A stretch of 64,000 nucleotides of DNA from Hemiscyllium ocellatum (GCF_020745735.1 NC_083414.1:54194013-54258012); one strand, 5' to 3'; positions 2,455 through 35,974 are shown, numbered from the stretch's first letter. Program-made: numbers and translations. The notes: a model not told the origin generated them from the letters alone.

Positions 2455-3896
2455 AGCAAAAACTTCCAGCTCGGCGAGCAGAACCACAACAACGGATACC
2501 CGAGCTACAAATCTTCAATCAGATTTTGTAGATGGTAGCAGAGGTGGAGAAAATAGTTGCTGAGACATATTGTATCCTAAGCTTTATTAGTAAGAATACA
2601 GAGCACAAGAACAAAGAGGTGATGCACAACATACTTGTCAGACCTCAGCTGAAGTAATGTGTTTTGATCGGTTTGCCACATTCAGAGGCATGTAAAAGCA
2701 TTGGACAGAATGCAGAAAAGATTTACAAGAGTGGTCCTGGGCTTGGGAAACTTCAGTGATAAGCAGTGATTGAACAGCTTGGACTAATCTCTTCGAGAGA
2801 AGATGGTTCAGAAAAGAGGAAATCCCAAAGAAAATATCAAAATCATGAATCAGCTAACTAGAGAAGATATGGAGAAACCGTACTTGCTTGTAAAAAGGCC
2901 ACTATCAGGAAGACACAAATATAAAGTGATTTACAAAAGAAGCAAATGTAATTTGAGAACTTTTGTTTCCTATAATGAGTGGTTCAGATCTGGAACGCGC
3001 TACCTGGAAGTGTGGTGGAGAAAGTTCAATTAATGCAATCAGGAAGGTATGACTGTATATGGTTATTTAAACACCAAAAACACAGGGTTACAGGCAAAAG
3101 ACAGGAGCTTATCATTAGATCATCATGCTCATTTGGCGAGCATGAATATGTTCAACTCCTTGACTGATCACTGCTGGGAAATGTGATAACCTGCCTGGTT
3201 TTGCTTTTACACTAAAAGGCAAGGCTGAAGTACTGTGAGCCTGTACGTTCTGAATGAGGCAACAAAGTATAAAAAAAAGGCAGAAATGCTGTCAGTATTC
3301 AAGTAGGCATAAGGTGAGTGAGCACTAAGTAGGCAAGCAAACAGCCTGGAAGCGCATCTTGTCCAATGCATATGGATACTGTCCTTACACACAAAGCTGT
3401 CTGGCAGCAACATTGCAATGAAAGGCATCCATGTGCTCTGAAGGGCAGTACTCAAGTGACAAATTGAATTCTAAGTGAGTTAGAGATGTGCCAGGATGAT
3501 ATAATGAGGTTGGTACTTGCCCAAAACAAGGTCTGTGGACATGGGTTGCTGATTTCACTGCTAATGGAGTATTCATGGAAGATAGATGTTCGGCCAAGGT
3601 GGAGACCCAGAGGAGCAACCAAAGCGATAGAACAATCAGGTACCTGTTCTGACTTTCATTACGGGAATTCTAGGTGTGTAGCATTTTTCCATTACATGGA
3701 AAATGTGAGATTCCATGTGAATAAGGTGAGAATAGGTAATAATGAGATGCTGATGCTTGCAAATGACATCTTGCAACTCACTAGCAAGATTTTCTTCTTG
3801 TTATTAAAACATGGTGTTCAAAATCTGACTTTACTTTCCTTGATATTGGGAATCTAAGTTTTCTCTGAGTTCAATGTGTCTCCCAATATCATTCAG

Positions 3897-21945: not shown

Positions 21946-22251
21946 GTCCAGCCCTCCAAGTGACCAGCAATTCATAGAGACATGATCTTAGCCTTTGATG
22001 GGACTAAAGCCCTGATGCCAGACACTTATTTATCTGATGAACACAGAATCGCACAGAGGAAATGGTCAGTACAGTAGCCCCTGGCTTCTTCTCTCAGATT
22101 CAGGCCCATTGCCACTATCATTAAGCTCAGTCTTACACTTCACTATAACATTTGTATTCTTACATAGAACATAGAACATAGAACATAGAAGGATACAGCG
22201 CAGTACAGGCCCTTCGGCCCTCGATGTTGCACCGACCGAGTCCTACCTAAC

Positions 22252-25155
22252 CTATACTAGCCCAATAACTTCCAAATGCCTATCCAATGCCCGCTTAAAT
22301 GAACATAAAGAAGGAGAGTTCACCACTGATACGGGCAGGGCATTCCATGAACTCACAACCCGCTGTGTGAAGAATCTACCCCTAACATCTGTCCTATACC
22401 TACCACCCCTTAATTTAAAGCTATGTCCCCTAGTAACACCTGACTCCATTAGCGGTAAAAGGTTCTTAGTATCTACCCTATCTAAACCCCTAATCATCTT
22501 ATACACTTCTATCAGATCTCCCCTAAACCTTCTCTTCTCCAATGAGAACAGCCCCAAGTGCCTCAGCCTTTCCTCATAAGATTTTCCTACCATTCCAGGC
22601 AACATCCTGGTAAACCTCCTCTGCACTCTTTCTAAAGCTTCCACATCCTTCCTATAGTATGGCGACCAAAACTGCACACAATACTCCAGATGAGGCCTCA
22701 CCAGAGTCTTATACAACTGCAACATGACCTCAGGACTCCGGAACTCAATTCCTCTGCCAATAAAGCCCAGTACACCATATGCCTTCCTCACAGCACTATT
22801 TACCTGGGTGGCAACTTTCAGAGATCTGTGTACATAGACACCAAGATCCCTCTGCTCATCCACACTACCAAGTAGCCTACCATTAGCCCAGTAATCCATC
22901 ATCTTGTTATTCCTACCAAAGTGAACGACTTCGCACTTAGCTACATTGAATTCCATTTGCCACATTTCCGCCCAGCTCTGCAACTTATCTATATCCCGCT
23001 GTAACCTACCACTTCCTTCCTCACTATCCACAACTCCACCGACTTTTGTGTCATCCGCAAACTTGCTTACCCAGCTTTCAAGTCCTTCCTCTAGATCATT
23101 TATAAAGATAACAAAAAGCAATGGTCCCAAAACAGATCCTTGTGGTACACCGCTAGTAACTGCGCTCCAAGATGAACATAATCCATCAACTACTACCCTC
23201 TGTCTCCTTCCAGCCAGCCAATTCCTAATCCAAACCTCTAATGTATCCTCAATGCCATACCTCCGAAGTTTTAGCATTAGCCTACCATGGGGAACCTTAT
23301 CGAACGCCTTACTAAAATCCATATACACAACATCTACTGCTTTACCCTCATCCACTTCCTTAGTCACCTTCTCAAAGAACTCAATAAGGTTTGTGAGGCA
23401 CGACCTGCCCTTCACAAAACCATGCTGGCTATCCCTGATCACGTTATTCCTACCCAGATGTTCATAAATCTTATCCCTTACCATTCTCTCTAAGACTTTG
23501 CTCACCACTGAAGTCAGACTCACTGGCCTATAGTTACTAGGGCTATCCCTACTCCCTTTCTTGAACAATGGGACCACATTCGCTATCCTCCAGTCCTCTG
23601 GTACTATTCCCGTTGACAATGACGACATAAAAATCCAGGCCAATGGCTCTGCTATCTCCTCCCTAGCTTCCCATAGGATCCTGGGGTAAATGCCATCAGG
23701 CCCAGGAGACTTATCTATATTCATCCTTTCCAATATTCCCAAAACCTCTTCCCTGCATATTTCCAGGGCATCCATTCTAATTATTTGTGATTCCATATTC
23801 ACATCAGCAACAGTGTCCTGTTCCTGAGTGAATACTGATGAAAAGTACTGATTTAATGTCTCTCCAATCTCCTCCGCCTCCACACACAACTTCCCACTAC
23901 TATCCTTGACTGGACCGATACCTACCCTAGTCATCCTTTTATTCTTGACATACCTATAGAAAGCCTTTGGGTTTTCCCTAATCCTACCAGCTAAAGACTT
24001 TTCATGTCCCCTTCTCGCTTTTCTTAGCTCCCTCTTTAGCTCCTTCCTGGCTACCTTATAACTCTCAATCGCCCCTACTGAACCTTCACGCCTCATCTTT
24101 ACATATGCCGCCTTCTTCTCTTTCACAAGGGACGCCAATTCCTTACTAAACCACGGCTGCCTCACAAGGCCCTTTACACCATGCCTGACTGGTACATACC
24201 TATCGAGGACACGCAGTAGCTGCTCCTTGAACAATCCCCACATCTCATTAGTGTTCTTCTCTTGAAGCCTGTTTTTCCAATCCACACAACCTAAGTCATG
24301 CCTCACTGCATCATAATTTCCCTGCCCCCAGCTATAGCTCTTGCCCTGCGGCGCACGATTATCCCTCTCCATCACTAAAGTAAAAGTCACCGAGTTGTGG
24401 TCACTGTCCCCGAAGTGCTCACCTACCTCAAAGTCTAACACCTGGCCTGGTTCATTACCTAGAACCAAATCCAATATAGCCTCCCCTCTTGTTGGCCTGT
24501 CGACATATTGTGTCAGGAAACCCTCCTGCACACATTGTACAAACACCGACCCATCTAATGAACTCGAGCTATAGCTCTCCCAGTCAATATCTGGGAAGTT
24601 AAAGTCCCCCATAACAACCACCCTGCTACCTTCACTCTTTTCCTGAATCATCCTCGCAATATTATCCTCTACTTCTCTAGGACTATTAGGAGGCCTGTAG
24701 AAAACACCTAACAGGGTGACCTCACCTTTCCTATTTCTAACCTCAGCCCAAACTACCTCAGATGGCAAGTCCTCTTCCATCGTCCATTCCACTGCTGTGA
24801 TACTGTCTTTGACAAGTAATGCCACGCCTCCCCCTTTTTTACCCCCATGTCTGATCCTACTAAAACATTTGAACCCTGGAACGTGCAACAGCCATTCTTG
24901 TCCCTGTTCTACCCACGTCTCTGTAATGGCCACAACATCGAAGTCCCAGGTACCAACCCACGCTGCAAGTTCACCTACCTTATTCCTTATACTTCTGGCA
25001 TTGAAGTATACACACTTCAATCCTCCTTTCTGGTTACAGGCACCCTCCTTAGAGATCGCTGCATTATTCCTAACCTCCCTACACTCAAGGTCCTGTACCC
25101 TAAAGCTACAGTCCTGGTTCCCATGCCCCCGCGGAGTTAGTTTAAACCCTCCCAA
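22252..25155 (-). CDS. CR1 ORF2: APE endonuclease + reverse transcriptase, uninterrupted 967 codons
   Basis: APE motifs YFNARS, ITETW, YRPP, GDFN, LDLVL, SDH; RT motifs PGPDG, NYRPVSLTS, QHGF, DFSKAFDKV, GVPQGSVLGP, KFADD. No in-frame ATG before the APE domain. Confidence 0.93.
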   Translation of the reverse strand: MGGFKLTPRGHGNQDCSFRVQDLECREVRNNAAISKEGACNQKGGLKCVYFNARSIRNKVGELAAWVGTWDFDVVAITETWVEQGQEWLLHVPGFKCFSRIRHGGKKGGGVALLVKDSITAVEWTMEEDLPSEVVWAEVRNRKGEVTLLGVFYRPPNSPREVEDNIARMIQEKSEGSRVVVMGDFNFPDIDWESYSSSSLDGSVFVQCVQEGFLTQYVDRPTRGEAILDLVLGNEPGQVLDFEVGEHFGDSDHNSVTFTLVMERDNRAPQGKSYSWGQGNYDAVRHDLGCVDWKNRLQEKNTNEMWGLFKEQLLRVLDRYVPVRHGVKGLVRQPWFSKELASLVKEKKAAYVKMRREGSVGAIESYKVARKELKRELRKARRGHEKSLAGRIRENPKAFYRYVKNKRMTRVGIGPVKDSSGKLCVEAEEIGETLNQYFSSVFTQEQDTVADVNMESQIIRMDALEICREEVLGILERMNIDKSPGPDGIYPRILWEAREEIAEPLAWIFMSSLSTGIVPEDWRIANVVPLFKKGSRDSPSNYRPVSLTSVVSKVLERMVRDKIYEHLGRNNVIRDSQHGFVKGRSCLTNLIEFFEKVTKEVDEGKAVDVVYMDFSKAFDKVPHGRLMLKLRRYGIEDTLEVWIRNWLAGRRQRVVVDGLCSSWSAVTSGVPQGSVLGPLLFVIFINDLEEGLESWVSKFADDTKVGGVVDSEEGSGRLQRDIDKLQSWAEMWQMEFNVAKCEVVHFGRNNKMMDYWANGRLLGSVDEQRDLGVYVHRSLKVATQVNSAVRKAYGVLGFIGRGIEFRSPEVMLQLYKTLVRPHLEYCVQFWSPYYRKDVEALERVQRRFTRMLPGMVGKSYEERLRHLGLFSLEKRRFRGDLIEVYKMIRGLDRVDTKNLLPLMESGVTRGHSFKLRGGRYRTDVRGRFFTQRVVSSWNALPVSVVNSPSLCSFKRALDRHLEVIGLV

Positions 25156-25875
25156 AGAGCACTAGCAAACCTCCCCCAAGGACACTGGTGCCCCTCAGGT
25201 TCAGGTGTAGCCCATCCTTTTTATAGAGGTCCCACCTTCCCCAGAAAGGACCCCAGTTGTCCAGAAACCGGAATCCCTCCCTCCTGCACCATCCCTGTAG
25301 CCACGCATTTAACTGCTCTCTCTCCCTATTCCTTGACTCTCTATCACGTGGCACGGGTAACAAACCAGAGACTACAACTCTGTTTGTTCTAACTCTGAGC
25401 TTCCAACCTAGCTCCCTGTAAGCCTGTCTGACATCCGCACCCTTCTTCCTACCTATATCGTTGGTGCCAACGTGGACCACGATCTGGGGCTGCTCCCCCT
25501 CCCCCTTAAGGACCCGGAAAACACTATCAGCGACATCACGTACCCTTGCACCTGGGAGGCAACATACCAAACGTGAGTCCCTGTCGCCCCCACAAAACCG
25601 TCTGTCTGTACCCCTCACTATCGAGTCCCCAAGAACTATCGCTCTACCTTTCTCCACCCTACCCTTCTGAGCAACGGGGCCAGGCTCCGTGCCAGAGGCC
25701 TGAACCTCGTTGCTTGCTCCTGGTAAGTCATCCCCCCCACAAGTATCCAAAACGGTATACTTGTTCTTGAGGGGAATGACCGCAGGGGGTCCCTGCACTG
25801 GCTTCCTCCTCCCACTCCCCCTCACTGTCACCCATCTATCTTGAACTTTCGGAGTAACTACTTGCCTAAAGCTCT
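25137..25875 (-). pseudogene. CR1 ORF1 C-terminal SGNH/GDSL esterase domain (5'-truncated; 1-nt deletion in a G-run near the end)
   Basis: LGDSIVRG, CLPGARV, VHVGTNDIG, DGLHLN. Restoring one G gives the typical ending GRFASALWEGLN*. Confidence 0.88.
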
Positions 25876-31146: not shown

Positions 31147-34100
31147 AGAACATAGAACAGTACAGACCCTTCAGCCCTTGATGTTGTGCCAGCTTTTCAT
31201 CCTACTCTAACTTCAAACTAATCGTCATACCCTATATTTTACTATCTTCCATGTGTCTATCCAAGAGTCGTTGAAATGTTCCTAATGTATCTGACTCTAC
31301 TACCACTGCTGATAGTGCATTCCACACACCCATCACTCTCTGTGTAAAGAACCTACCTCTGATATCTCTACTAAACTTTCCTCCAATCATCTTAAAATTA
31401 TGCCCCATCATGATAGCCATTTCCACCATTGGAAAAAGTCAGAGGCTATCTACTTTCTTTATGCCTCTCCTCATCTGGTATACCTCCATCAAGTCACCTC
31501 TCATCCTTCTTTGCTCCAATGAGAAGAGCTCTAGCTCCCTTAACTTCTCTTCCTAAGACATGCCTCCCAGTCCAGGCTGTATCCGAGTAAATCTGCTCTG
31601 CACCCTCTCTAAAGCTTCCACATCCTTCCTATAATGAGGTGACCAGAACGGAACACAATATTCCAAGTGTGGTCTAACCAGGGTTCCAAAGATGTGCAGC
31701 ATAACCTCGTGGCTCTTAAACTCAATCCCCCAGCTCATGAAAGCCAACACCCAATACACCTTCTTCACAACCCTATCAGCTTGAGAGGCAACTTTGAGGG
31801 ATTTATGGACACAGACCCTAAGAACCTCAGCTCCTCCATACTGCCAAGAATCCTGCCTTAAACCCTGTAATCTGCATTCAACCCTGTAATCTGCATTCAA
31901 ATTCAACCTTCCAAAGTGAATCACTTAACATTTTTCCAGGTTGAACTCTGTCTGCCATTTATCAGCCCACTTCTGCATCCTGCCAATGTTCCGTTGCAAC
32001 CTACACCAGTCCTCGACTGTATCCACCACTCCTCGACAGTATCCACCAACCTTTTTGTCATCGACAAACTTACTAACTCACCCTTCCACGTCTTCATTCG
32101 AATCATTTAGAAAAATCACGAAGAGCAGCGGTCCCAGAACTGATTCCTGCAGAACACCACTGGTCACCAAGCTCCAGGCTGAATACTTTGCATCTACCAC
32201 CACACTCTGTCTTCTGTGGGCCAGCCAATTCTATATCCAGACTGACAGGTTTCCCTGTATCCCATGTCTCCATACTTTCTGAATGAGCCTACATAGGGAA
32301 CTTTATCAAGCACCTTCCCAACATCTATATACACCAAATCCACTGCTCTACCTTCATCAATGTGTTTTGTCACATCATCAAAGAATTCAATAAGGCTTGT
32401 GAGGCATGACCATCCCTCACAAAGCCATGCTGACCATTTCTAATCAAGCTATGTTTTTCCAAATAATCATAAATCCTGTCTGTCAGAATCCTCTCCAACA
32501 CTTTGCCCGCTAGAGACATGAGACTGACTTCTATAATTCCTAGGATTATCCCTATTCCCTTGCTTGAACAAGGGAATAACATTTGCCACCCTTCAATCAT
32601 CTGGCACGACTCCAGTGGACAGTAAGGACTCAAAGATCATTGCCATAGGCGCTGCAATCTCGTGTCTCACTTCCTATAGTAACCTTGGGTATATTCCCAT
32701 CTGGCCCAGGGGCTCTTTCCATCCTTTGACTTGCAAGATTTCTAGCACATCCTCCTTCCTAACATCAACATGTTTCAGCATATCGTCTGTTTCATGCTGT
32801 CCTCAGAAATATCAAGGTCACTCTCAGTAGTGAATAGTGAAGCAAAGTATTCTTTAAGGACCTCCTCCAACTCCAAGCACAAGTTCCCTCCACTATCCCT
32901 GATCAGCATTACCCTTACTCTGGCCATCCTCTTGTGCCTCACCTAAGTGTAGAATGCCTTATGGTTTTCTTTAATCCTGACCACTAAAGCTTTTTCATGT
33001 CCCTTTCTAGCTCTCCTAAGTCCATTCTTTAGTTCATCCTGGCTACCATGTAACCATCTAGAGCCCTGTCTGATCCTTGCCTCCTCAACCTTAAGTAAGC
33101 TTTCTTCTTCCTCTTGACGAGATGTTCCACCCTTGTCACCCAAGGCTCCTTCACCCTACCATCCCTTCCTTGCCTCAGTGGGACAAACGTATCCAGCATT
33201 ATTAGCAAGTGCTTCCTAAACAACCTCCACATTTCTGATGTGCATTTCCCTGCGAACATCTGTTCCCAATTTTGGCATCCCAGTTCCTGCCTAATAGCAT
33301 AGTAATTCCTCCACCCCCAACTAAATACTTTCCCATACCATCTGCTCCTATCCGTCTCCATGTGTACAGTAAAGGTCACAGAGTTGTGATCACTATCACC
33401 AAAATGCTCTTCCACCCAGAGATCTGACACATGTCATGTTTCATTGCCAAGCACAAAATCCAACATGGCCTCCCCTCTAGTTGGCCTATTGCATCAGGAA
33501 CACTTACTGGATTCACCTGGAAAAAAAATGCTCCATCCAAAAAATTTGAATGAAGGAGATTCTAATCAATATTTGGGAAGTTGAAGTCACCCATGACAAC
33601 AATCCTGTTACTTCTACACCTTTCCAATATCTGCCTCCTAATCTCCTCCTCATGTCTCTGTTGCTATTGGGGGAGTGGGGGGGGGGGGGGGGGGGGGGTG
33701 GTGGTGGTGGTGGTCTTTGTAGAAAACTCCCAGAAAAGTGACTGTTCCTTTCCTGTTTCTGGCTTTCATCCATACTGACTCAGTAGACAAATCCTCCTTG
33801 ATGACCTCCCTTTCTGCAGCTGTGATACTAACCCTGATTGGCAACACTACCTCCTTTACCTGCCATCATCTTCCTTTTGAGACATATAAACCCCGGAATA
33901 TCCAACAACCATTCCCACCTCTGTGATATCCAAATTTCCATAATGGCTACAACATCATAGTTGCAAGTACTGATCCATGCTTTGAGTTCATCACCCTTAT
34001 TCCTGATGTTTCTTGCATTAAAATAGACACACTTCAACCCATCACACTGACTGCACCAATGCCCTATCGTAAGACCATAAGACATAGGAGTGGAAGTAAG

Positions 34101-35400
34101 GCCATTCGGCCCTTCGAGTCCACTCCGCCACTTAATCATGGCTGATGGGCATTTCAACTCCACTTACCAGCATTATCCCCACAGCCCTTAATTCCTTGTG
34201 ACATCAAGAACTTATCAATCTCGGCCTTGAAGCCATTTAGAGTCCCGGCCTCCACTACACTCCACAGCAATGAATTCCACAGGCCCACCTCTCTCTGGCT
34301 TAAGAAATGTCTCCGCATTTCTGTTCTGAATTTACCCCCTCTAATTCTAAGGCTGTGCCCACGAGTCCTAGTCTCCCCGCCTAACGGAAACAATTTCTTA
34401 ACGTCCATCCTTTCCAAGCCAAATGTCTATCCCTCCTCACAGATTTTCTGCACACTGTATCTAGCACTCGGTACTCCTTCCTTTGATCCATAGCTCTGGT
34501 TCCCACCCCCCTCTCAAACTAGTTTAAACCATCCCGGTGAGGCCTAGCAAATCTCCCACCGAGGCCTAGCAAATCTCCCACCCAGGATATTAGTATGCCT
34601 CCAATTCAGGTGCAACCCGTCCTCCTTGTGCAGATTGCATCTTCCCCAGAAGGTATCTCAATGATCCACATATCTGAAGCTCTCCTTCCTACACCAGTCC
34701 TGCAGGCATGTGTTCACCTGAACTCACTCTCTATTCCTAGCTTCACTAGCAAGTGGCACCAGTAGCAATCCTGAGATTACTACACTGCTTGTCCTGCTTT
34801 CTAGCCTCCAACCTAACTCCCTATATTCTCTTTTCAGTCCTCCTCCCTTTCTCTACCTGTATCACTGGTACCGATGTCTGCCATGACTTCTGGCTGCTCT
34901 CACTCCCTCTTAAGAATCCTGTTGACCAAATCCTAGACATCCTTGACCCTGACACCCGGAAGGCAACATACTATCCGGGAGTCTCGCTCGCGATCACAGA
35001 ATCTCCTGTTTGTTCCTCTCACAAATGAATCTCCTATTACTATTGCTCTCCTATTCTCCCCCCTTCTCTCCTGAGCCACAGAGCCAGGCTCAGTGCCAGA
35101 AACCTGGCCCCTGTTGCTTTCTCTGGCTAGGTTCTACTCACCCTCCCCCGAACCATATCCAAAATGGTGTACATTATTGAATGGAATCGCCACGGAAGGG
35201 GGGTCCCTGCACTGTCTGCCTATTTCCTTTCCCTCTCCTGACAGTCACCCAGCTGCCTTTATCCTGTCACATAGGTGTGACTACCTCTCTATGATTCCCC
35301 TCTATCACCTTCTCAGCCTCTCAAATGATCTGAAGTTCATCCAGCCCCAGCTCCTGTACATGATGGGCTCTGTGAGGAACTGCATGTGCACTTCTCCCAA
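31147..35400 (-). mobile_element. Degenerate near-full-length CR1 LINE (ORF1 + ORF2) with a nested CR1 3' fragment
   Basis: agaacatagaac tail; frameshifted RT/APE pieces (LVRPHLEYC, QHGF, EHFGDSDHN, YFNARNIRNKGDEL); SGNH remnant 34530-35050. Confidence 0.9.
34069..34420 (-). mobile_element. Younger CR1 3' fragment nested in the 31147-35400 CR1
   Basis: taagaccataagacatagg tail plus LFPLGGETRTRGHSLRIRGGKFRTEMRRHF. Confidence 0.88.
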
Positions 35401-35974
35401 GTGAAGTCAGCAGGGGCAAAAGGATCATGCAACAGCCCTCGCCTCCGTTCCCTTGGCTCTAAATTGCCAAGAAAGATTGAATAAATGGGGGAAAATAGCC
35501 TTACCTTACCAACTCGCTACACATGGTCTTTTCTTTTTTGGTTAGAGGACTACATGTGCAGTGTCTCGGGTTTATAACAGTCCGAATATAGCAGCTCACG
35601 TGCCCAGCAATCCCCAATTGAGCCCTTGCTCCTCCTATTTACGAGGTAAGTCTTTAAGAGGGAAATATACCTTCCTGGAAACCCCTCCCCACCCCGGTCT
35701 GCAGTCTTACTGCAAGTCACCACAAGTCACATATTTCTGATCAGGGCAATTTTTGATGTGCACATCTTAAACACATAGGGCAGGATGGCCAAGTAGATAG
35801 TGTACCCACACAGTGCAGGCTTTGCTTTCTTCTCATTTCTCTGCTGCTGCTCTGCCTCATAATTGAGGCATGTGATGAAGCTTGAAGGACAGTCTGCCAC
35901 CACTTAGAAGAGTCGGTAATTTTAAATGAGCTCCTCTCATTCATTAATGTCAATGATGTCACACTTGAAGGAGA

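Follow-up and report, generated by a model that had tools for sequence, protein, structure and literature searches.

How is the second open reading frame (ORF) of a long interspersed nuclear element (LINE) translated when it has no AUG near its beginning? The question is raised by a CR1 element on the minus strand of a 64,000-nucleotide stretch of the Hemiscyllium ocellatum genome (NC_083414.1:54194013-54258012, here called the window), in which an esterase ORF1 is followed by an ORF2 encoding an APE endonuclease and a reverse transcriptase (RT). A sequence-only reading of the window had proposed that ORF2 is reached by a -1 ribosomal frameshift at a slippery heptamer. Based on sequence comparisons, we consider it likely that the junction is a programmed -1 frameshift site yielding an ORF1-ORF2 (esterase-APE-RT) fusion, as indicated by conservation, codon register and swaps of the heptamer. 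The features of the element are as follows.

22163..25874, minus strand: young, 5'-truncated CR1 LINE copy of the esterase type (family A)
25137..25874, minus strand: ORF1 remnant, SGNH/GDSL esterase (PF13472, E 6e-14); in the sister register it ends G-L-N-stop
25173..25177, minus strand: run of five G, one G short of the sisters, which disrupts ORF1 of this copy
25162..25164, minus strand: TAG in the ORF2 frame, five codons 5' of the heptamer, closing ORF2 upstream
25140..25146, minus strand: slippery heptamer U_UUA_AAC, predicted -1 shift site
25137..25139, minus strand: ORF1 stop UAA, adjoining the heptamer
25120..25130, minus strand: G5-N3-G3 tract starting 10 nt 3' of the heptamer, candidate 3' stimulator
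25093..25111, minus strand: small, family-specific hairpin of 5 bp
25009..25146, minus strand: open linker of 46 codons without AUG, in the -1 frame, from the heptamer to the APE motif
22252..25161, minus strand: ORF2 frame, 969 open codons (PF03372, APE; PF00078, RT)
about 25008-24397 and about 23559-22888, minus strand: APE endonuclease and reverse transcriptase, both in ORF2
22163..22190, minus strand: 3' terminal repeat (TTCTATG)4, read directly from the sequence

Register and frames at the junction

The heptamer is present on the minus strand at 25146-25140, as the sequence-only reading had stated, and TTTAAAC occurs again on that strand at 34528-34522. Since the motif is found 11 times in the 64 kb when both strands are counted, a single heptamer is weak evidence, and the strength of the signal comes from its conservation across lineages.

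As it stands, the window copy has an esterase frame that stops at 25144-25142, leaving its own heptamer out of register. The earlier proposal had been built on a restored ORF1 frame, and this restoration is confirmed by the sister copies: all 29 sister loci (L002-L030) carry six G where the window copy has five (25177-25173), and the extra base is also seen in contigs from three of four sequencing runs of other organisms. In these 29 loci the last residues of ORF1 are W-E-G-L-N; the heptamer stands in the X_XXY_YYZ register directly before the stop, and ORF2 lies in the -1 frame with no AUG before the APE domain. The window copy is a dead witness of the junction signal.

The -1 frame at the window heptamer reads G-F-K-L-T-P into the 969-codon ORF with APE and RT, so that this frame remains open downstream of the heptamer. 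The first AUG of ORF2, at 24780, is codon 128 and falls inside the APE domain. G-F-K-L-T-P, taken from the earlier reading, is correct as the ORF2 frame but not as the predicted product: under the tandem-slippage model, the protein would keep Leu-Asn of ORF1 and continue with Leu-Thr-Pro, not Phe-Lys.

Conservation within the genome and across lineages

We compared 200 loci from the same genome, which gave 162 distinct junctions in five families (A-E). The exact heptamer was found in 142 of the 162 (A 59/59, B 39/39, C 23/29, D 5/8, E 16/27), the variants being scattered over the older families with one or two copies each. Further genome searches with the proteins P0062, P0072 and P0060 returned mostly families already found.

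Among 80 metagenome loci, 15 had a readable junction and, together with the five families, made up 20 lineages. Of the remaining loci, some broke off upstream of the junction, some appeared to be microbial, and others had an esterase ORF but no heptamer; the last group comprises L148, L150, L153-L155, L157, L158, L160, L162, L163, L167, L169-L174, L177 and L185. The RT of these heptamer-less loci was 26-41% identical to the window RT where it could be compared, as against 50-62% for heptamer-bearing loci. No CR1 junction was present in two loci from viral contigs or six from genome contigs.

U_UUA_AAC was found in 17 of the 20 lineages, and the other three carried G_UUA_AAC (L122), G_GGA_AAC (L130) and G_GAU_UUU (L133, with a long additional tail on its ORF1). 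The ORF1 stop followed the heptamer directly in 16 lineages and one codon later in two. In all 13 lineage representatives in which the APE motif was reached, it lay in the -1 frame; between heptamer and motif this frame contained no stop in 11 representatives and one stop in two, as compared to 2-11 stops in the ORF1 frame. At the level of copies bearing the motif, APE was in the -1 frame in 56/57 (A), 30/36 (B), 11/24 (C), 5/5 (D) and 8/13 (E). The ORF2 frame was closed 1-5 codons upstream of the heptamer in 12 of the 20 lineages, and because of this closure Phe-Lys is not an initiated N-terminus of ORF2 in those 12.

For the four sequencing runs of other organisms, most of which are guessed to be RNA, only contigs were used. 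A splice-type joint at the junction was absent from these contigs, which is weak evidence, and no heptamer substitution occurred among the contig matches listed, beyond which there were 50 more.

Constraint at the nucleotide level

Codon usage at the end of ORF1 was analyzed in 13 lineages whose ORF1 was open over 60 codons or more; excluded were C, D, L128, L132, L143 and L164, whose frames are broken, and L133, on account of its tail. The terminal Leu codon was UUA in 12 of 12 cases and the Asn codon AAC in 13 of 13. By comparison, the commonest codon had a share of 0.30-0.90 in 27 conserved control columns, and in the controls UUA encoded 1 of 55 Leu and AAC 6 of 13 Asn. Synonymous variants of the heptamer, which would have spoken against the proposal, are thus not common. 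Dual coding fails to explain the invariance, since the ORF2 frame is closed just upstream in 12 of the 20 lineages. The codon pattern points to strong selection on the junction, acting at the level of nucleotides.

The protein ends were examined in 150 cluster representatives, 118 of which reach the ORF1 end and were reduced to 79 by collapsing. In front of a terminal L-N, the residue is of a kind encoded solely by purine-ending codons in 1 of 21 cases and solely by pyrimidine-ending codons in 12 of 21, the purine-only share at the next two positions being 8/21 and 9/21. Before a terminal G-N the residue is Gln in six of eight cases and never of the pyrimidine-only kind (Fisher p 2.6e-4, for rows that are not independent). 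This co-variation fits swaps of the heptamer, because U_UUA_AAC and G_GGA_AAC require such preceding residues. L-N stays terminal across tails of 0 to 13 extra residues, and is replaced at some ORF1 ends by G-N, K-N, F-F, G-F or D-F. Slip-compatible pairs end 35 of the 79 proteins, as compared to a background of 9% per position. Conservation at the nucleotide level thus goes beyond what the amino acids need, with swaps that keep the X_XXY_YYZ form.

The G-rich tract downstream of the heptamer, noted in the sequence-only reading, begins in the window with G5 at 25130-25126. A run of at least four G starting 8 to 13 nt after the heptamer was found in 17 of the 18 lineages with enough sequence, and in 15 lineages the start was at +10 or +11. 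The run covers three codons and looks constrained at the nucleotide level, because the flanking residues vary. Together, the adjacent stop (16/20) and the G-run (17/18) may form a pause element 3' of the heptamer at a near-fixed distance. In some copies (L067, L075, L052) the G-run has expanded to long G tracts, and in others single-base changes in its length break the -1 frame.

Observations against a frameshift and alternative explanations

Stimulators of -1 frameshifting are usually a stem-loop or pseudoknot 5-9 nt downstream of the slip site. No conserved 3' hairpin or stable shared fold was predicted in the 18 folded lineages, and a classical structured stimulator was not found, within a folding model that does not cover pseudoknots. 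The fold z scores were between -0.9 and +1.5 in 16 of the 18 lineages, -1.5 and -2.6 in the other two, and +0.9 in family A. The 5-bp hairpin noted in the sequence-only reading exists at 25111-25093, but a role as stimulator was rejected, as the hairpin appears in the family A fold only and lies 29 nt from the heptamer in a region with z +0.9. A three-tier G-quadruplex was likewise rejected, the pattern of four G3 runs being absent from all 18 folded lineages; a two-tier G-quadruplex over the G-run was predicted in five lineages (C, D, E, L128, L132), not including family A. Long-range pairing of the G-run gave no shared partner, the partners differing among lineages.

Other points concern sampling and the protein ends. 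The loci from the genome were ranked by queries that contained the junction, which favours intact heptamers. The metagenome junctions were placed by the nearest AAAC, and the ORF1 stop confirms the place except in L142 and L164. The lineages share ancestry and are not independent. In a protein tree made by a quick method, the G-N rows are confined to one clade of 21 rows, suggesting few independent events. Finally, 36 of the 79 representatives lack a slip-compatible pair among their three terminal residues. This set includes a separate clade of seven rows as well as eight proteins (counted before the collapse) in which K-N precedes the stop by about ten codons.

In one clade of ORF1 proteins (P0168, P0174, P0212, P0213, P0221, P0223, P0224 and P0229), K-N stands at the usual place with 10-12 further residues before the stop. 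At the protein level, this is compatible with an A_AAA_AAC heptamer farther from the stop.

Of 26 SGNH genes judged by us to be microbial-looking, for which no APE or RT match was found, one (L182) has this heptamer and a stop at its end. Such an ending would fit a motif kept as an RNA or DNA binding site, as a processing signal for a separate ORF2 message, or for Leu-Asn itself. L159, which ends in L-N with other codons, also fits this view, and the G-run, having no base-pairing partner, could be a protein site. However, an amino-acid constraint cannot fix synonymous positions, and it does not account for L-N at differing tail lengths or for the five substitute pairs. A binding site needs neither the codon register nor the fixed -1 relation, and the contigs of the four runs contain no splice-type joint. 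We therefore regard these explanations as highly improbable.

The distribution of AUG codons bears on the main alternative, termination-reinitiation as in SART1 or L1, in which ORF2 would start next to the ORF1 stop, at an AUG or a near-cognate codon, and the heptamer and G-run would hold the terminating ribosome. The earlier claim that ORF2 has no AUG before APE is correct for the window subfamily but does not extend to all lineages. In six of the 20 lineages re-initiation is possible, because an AUG lies at codon 3 or 4, either at the stop or shortly past it: UAAUG in family C (7/7 open copies) and L149, and an AUG two codons past the stop in L123, L124, L128 and L135, which we take to be bird-type loci. 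L125 and L127 have GUG beside the stop. Six more lineages have an AUG at codon 12-63; in family B, 22 of 26 open copies have a Met at codon 16, and in family A a linker Met occurs in 16 of 54 open copies and is missing from the other 38. Coupling through UAAUG has been shown for SART1 (PMC3708506, PMC2881922).

Yet no AUG precedes APE in the window subfamily, family D (4/4 open copies), L133 and L143, and in the window copy the in-frame AUG-like codons upstream of the APE motif are limited to two UUG, one AUC and AGG/AAG. A conserved AUG at the ORF1 stop, as in SART1, is absent in the window subfamily and present in six of the 20 lineages. The position of the AUG varies, or the AUG is missing, while the heptamer stays, and the UAAUG lineages keep the heptamer too. 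Swaps among X_XXY_YYZ motifs are not predicted by re-initiation. We thus consider this explanation unlikely; in a possible mixed form of it, re-initiation would serve in the AUG-bearing lineages and slippage in the others.

In family C (L205-L227) and L149 TAATG follows the heptamer directly, which places a slip site and a stop-start of the SART1 kind at one spot. In L157 (approximately 2980-3000) and L167 (approximately 1635-1650), whose esterase ORFs lack the heptamer, the end of ORF1 carries ATGA or GTGA, which resembles a stop-start overlap.

Proposed mechanism and comparison with known systems

In the frameshift mechanism that we favour, most ribosomes would terminate at the ORF1 stop and release the ORF1 protein. 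A minority would slip, with tRNA-Leu and tRNA-Asn moving from UUA AAC to UUU AAA, and would go on to translate the linker, APE and RT fused to ORF1, giving a high ratio of ORF1 protein to fusion as in Gag-Pol. More tentatively, the pause could come from the adjacent stop and an unstructured G-rich tract about 10 nt downstream, and the tract may be protein-bound or G-quadruplex-like instead of a pseudoknot. The signs by which a Gag-Pol-type -1 frameshift can be recognized in sequence are present at the junction, except for the classical structured stimulator.

Both U_UUA_AAC and G_GGA_AAC are among the most shift-prone heptamers (PMC5009743). Retroviral and gypsy Gag-Pol and coronavirus ORF1a/b likewise have a heptamer of this class at the end of a structural ORF and the polymerase in the -1 frame (PMC5009743). 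Unlike these systems, CR1 is not a long terminal repeat (LTR) element or virus, lacks a conserved stem-loop or pseudoknot 5-9 nt downstream, and has a stop directly after the heptamer and a G-run at about +10. No protease domain was found in CR1 by Pfam. In pea enation mosaic virus (umbravirus), the heptamer G_GAU_UUU needs a stop 3 nt later for shifting (PMC5009743). The same stop spacing is seen in family B and L133, and L133 has the same heptamer; however, this is an RNA virus, and most CR1 lineages have the stop directly adjoining the heptamer.

Among non-LTR elements, ORF2 of L1 and SART1, the worked-out cases, is made by re-initiation (PMC2881922, PMC3708506). These elements are also bicistronic, with an ORF2 that depends on translation of ORF1, and the UAAUG of SART1 is shared by family C and L149; they differ in making a separate ORF2 protein, and most CR1 lineages have no conserved AUG at the stop. 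The idea of a -1 shift is not new for non-LTR elements, since TRE5-A and TRE3-A of Dictyostelium are said to need one for ORF2 (PMC5911963). These are likewise APE-type elements, but belong to the L1 clade and to another host, and have another ORF1.

For two-ORF LINEs in general, translation of the second ORF has been called unclear (PMC3708506). The available text of the 2014 ORF1 survey (PMC4120745) and of the 2026 vertebrate CR1 survey (PMC13343379) does not contain the word "frameshift" and does not describe a junction signal, and excerpts of PMC1947958, PMC4255032 and PMC11835228 mention frameshifts only as mutations or for ALV. No proposal of CR1 frameshifting was found in the literature searched, which did not extend to the primary CR1 papers, and an earlier proposal is possible. 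Most vertebrates are described as having CR1 as their dominant retrotransposon (PMC13343379). If the mechanism holds, the CR1 enzyme would be a fusion with the esterase ORF1, ORF2 starts annotated at downstream AUGs would be mis-annotations, and engineered CR1 constructs would need the native junction. The junction would be a 30-nt element, possibly with an unusual G-run stimulator. A stimulator made of a stop and an unstructured G-run does not appear in the available text of the frameshift review (PMC5009743), which in 2016 described G-quadruplex stimulators of natural origin as "not currently known".

In L158, L160, L173 and L185 (also L155), which represent another group of esterase LINEs, ORF1 ends in a single TGA with C or A as the next base, and past this TGA an APE-type ORF extends without change of frame through a long linker. 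These loci are candidates for stop-codon readthrough. The broader picture, of an ancient -1 fusion across animals with a stimulator made of stop and G-run, and of a related esterase LINE group using UGA readthrough, is offered as a tentative one that may well not hold in full.

Identity of the element and other features of the window

CR1 LINEs are recognized by a short tandem repeat at the 3' end and by 5' truncation. The window copy has both, with (TTCTATG)4 at 22190-22163 and truncation at 25874, where about the first 63 ORF1 codons of L006 are missing. From 25874 downward it is 99.4-99.6% identical to four sister copies, and a first-look search found at least 1452 candidate copies of the CR1 stretch in the 3.98-Gb genome. 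Pfam matches to an esterase in ORF1 and to APE and RT in ORF2 identify the element as esterase-type, and the closest named relatives of ORF1 come mostly from sharks and rays. Such elements correspond to ORF1 type IVB and CR1 subgroup 7 (PMC4120745, PMC13343379); canonical vertebrate esterase CR1 has the same esterase ORF1, APE-RT ORF2 and short 3' terminal repeat. Assignment to CR1 rather than L2 is favoured because chondrichthyan L2 elements are reported to lack ORF1 (PMC13343379). A shark-type CR1 ORF1 (P0006, 72% identical) is filed as an SGNH hydrolase of Pseudomonas aeruginosa, likely reflecting host contamination.

The window contains a second, older element.

31314..35415, minus strand: degenerate CR1 from a different family (64-69% identity with family A)

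It keeps the same heptamer at 34528-34522 and, in agreement with the earlier reading, the G-run after it; the stop is kept as well. A short duplication is seen in its ORF1 tail (34535-34590), and an insertion of about 350 nt at 34068-34421, between the junction and APE, resembles a CR1 3' end.

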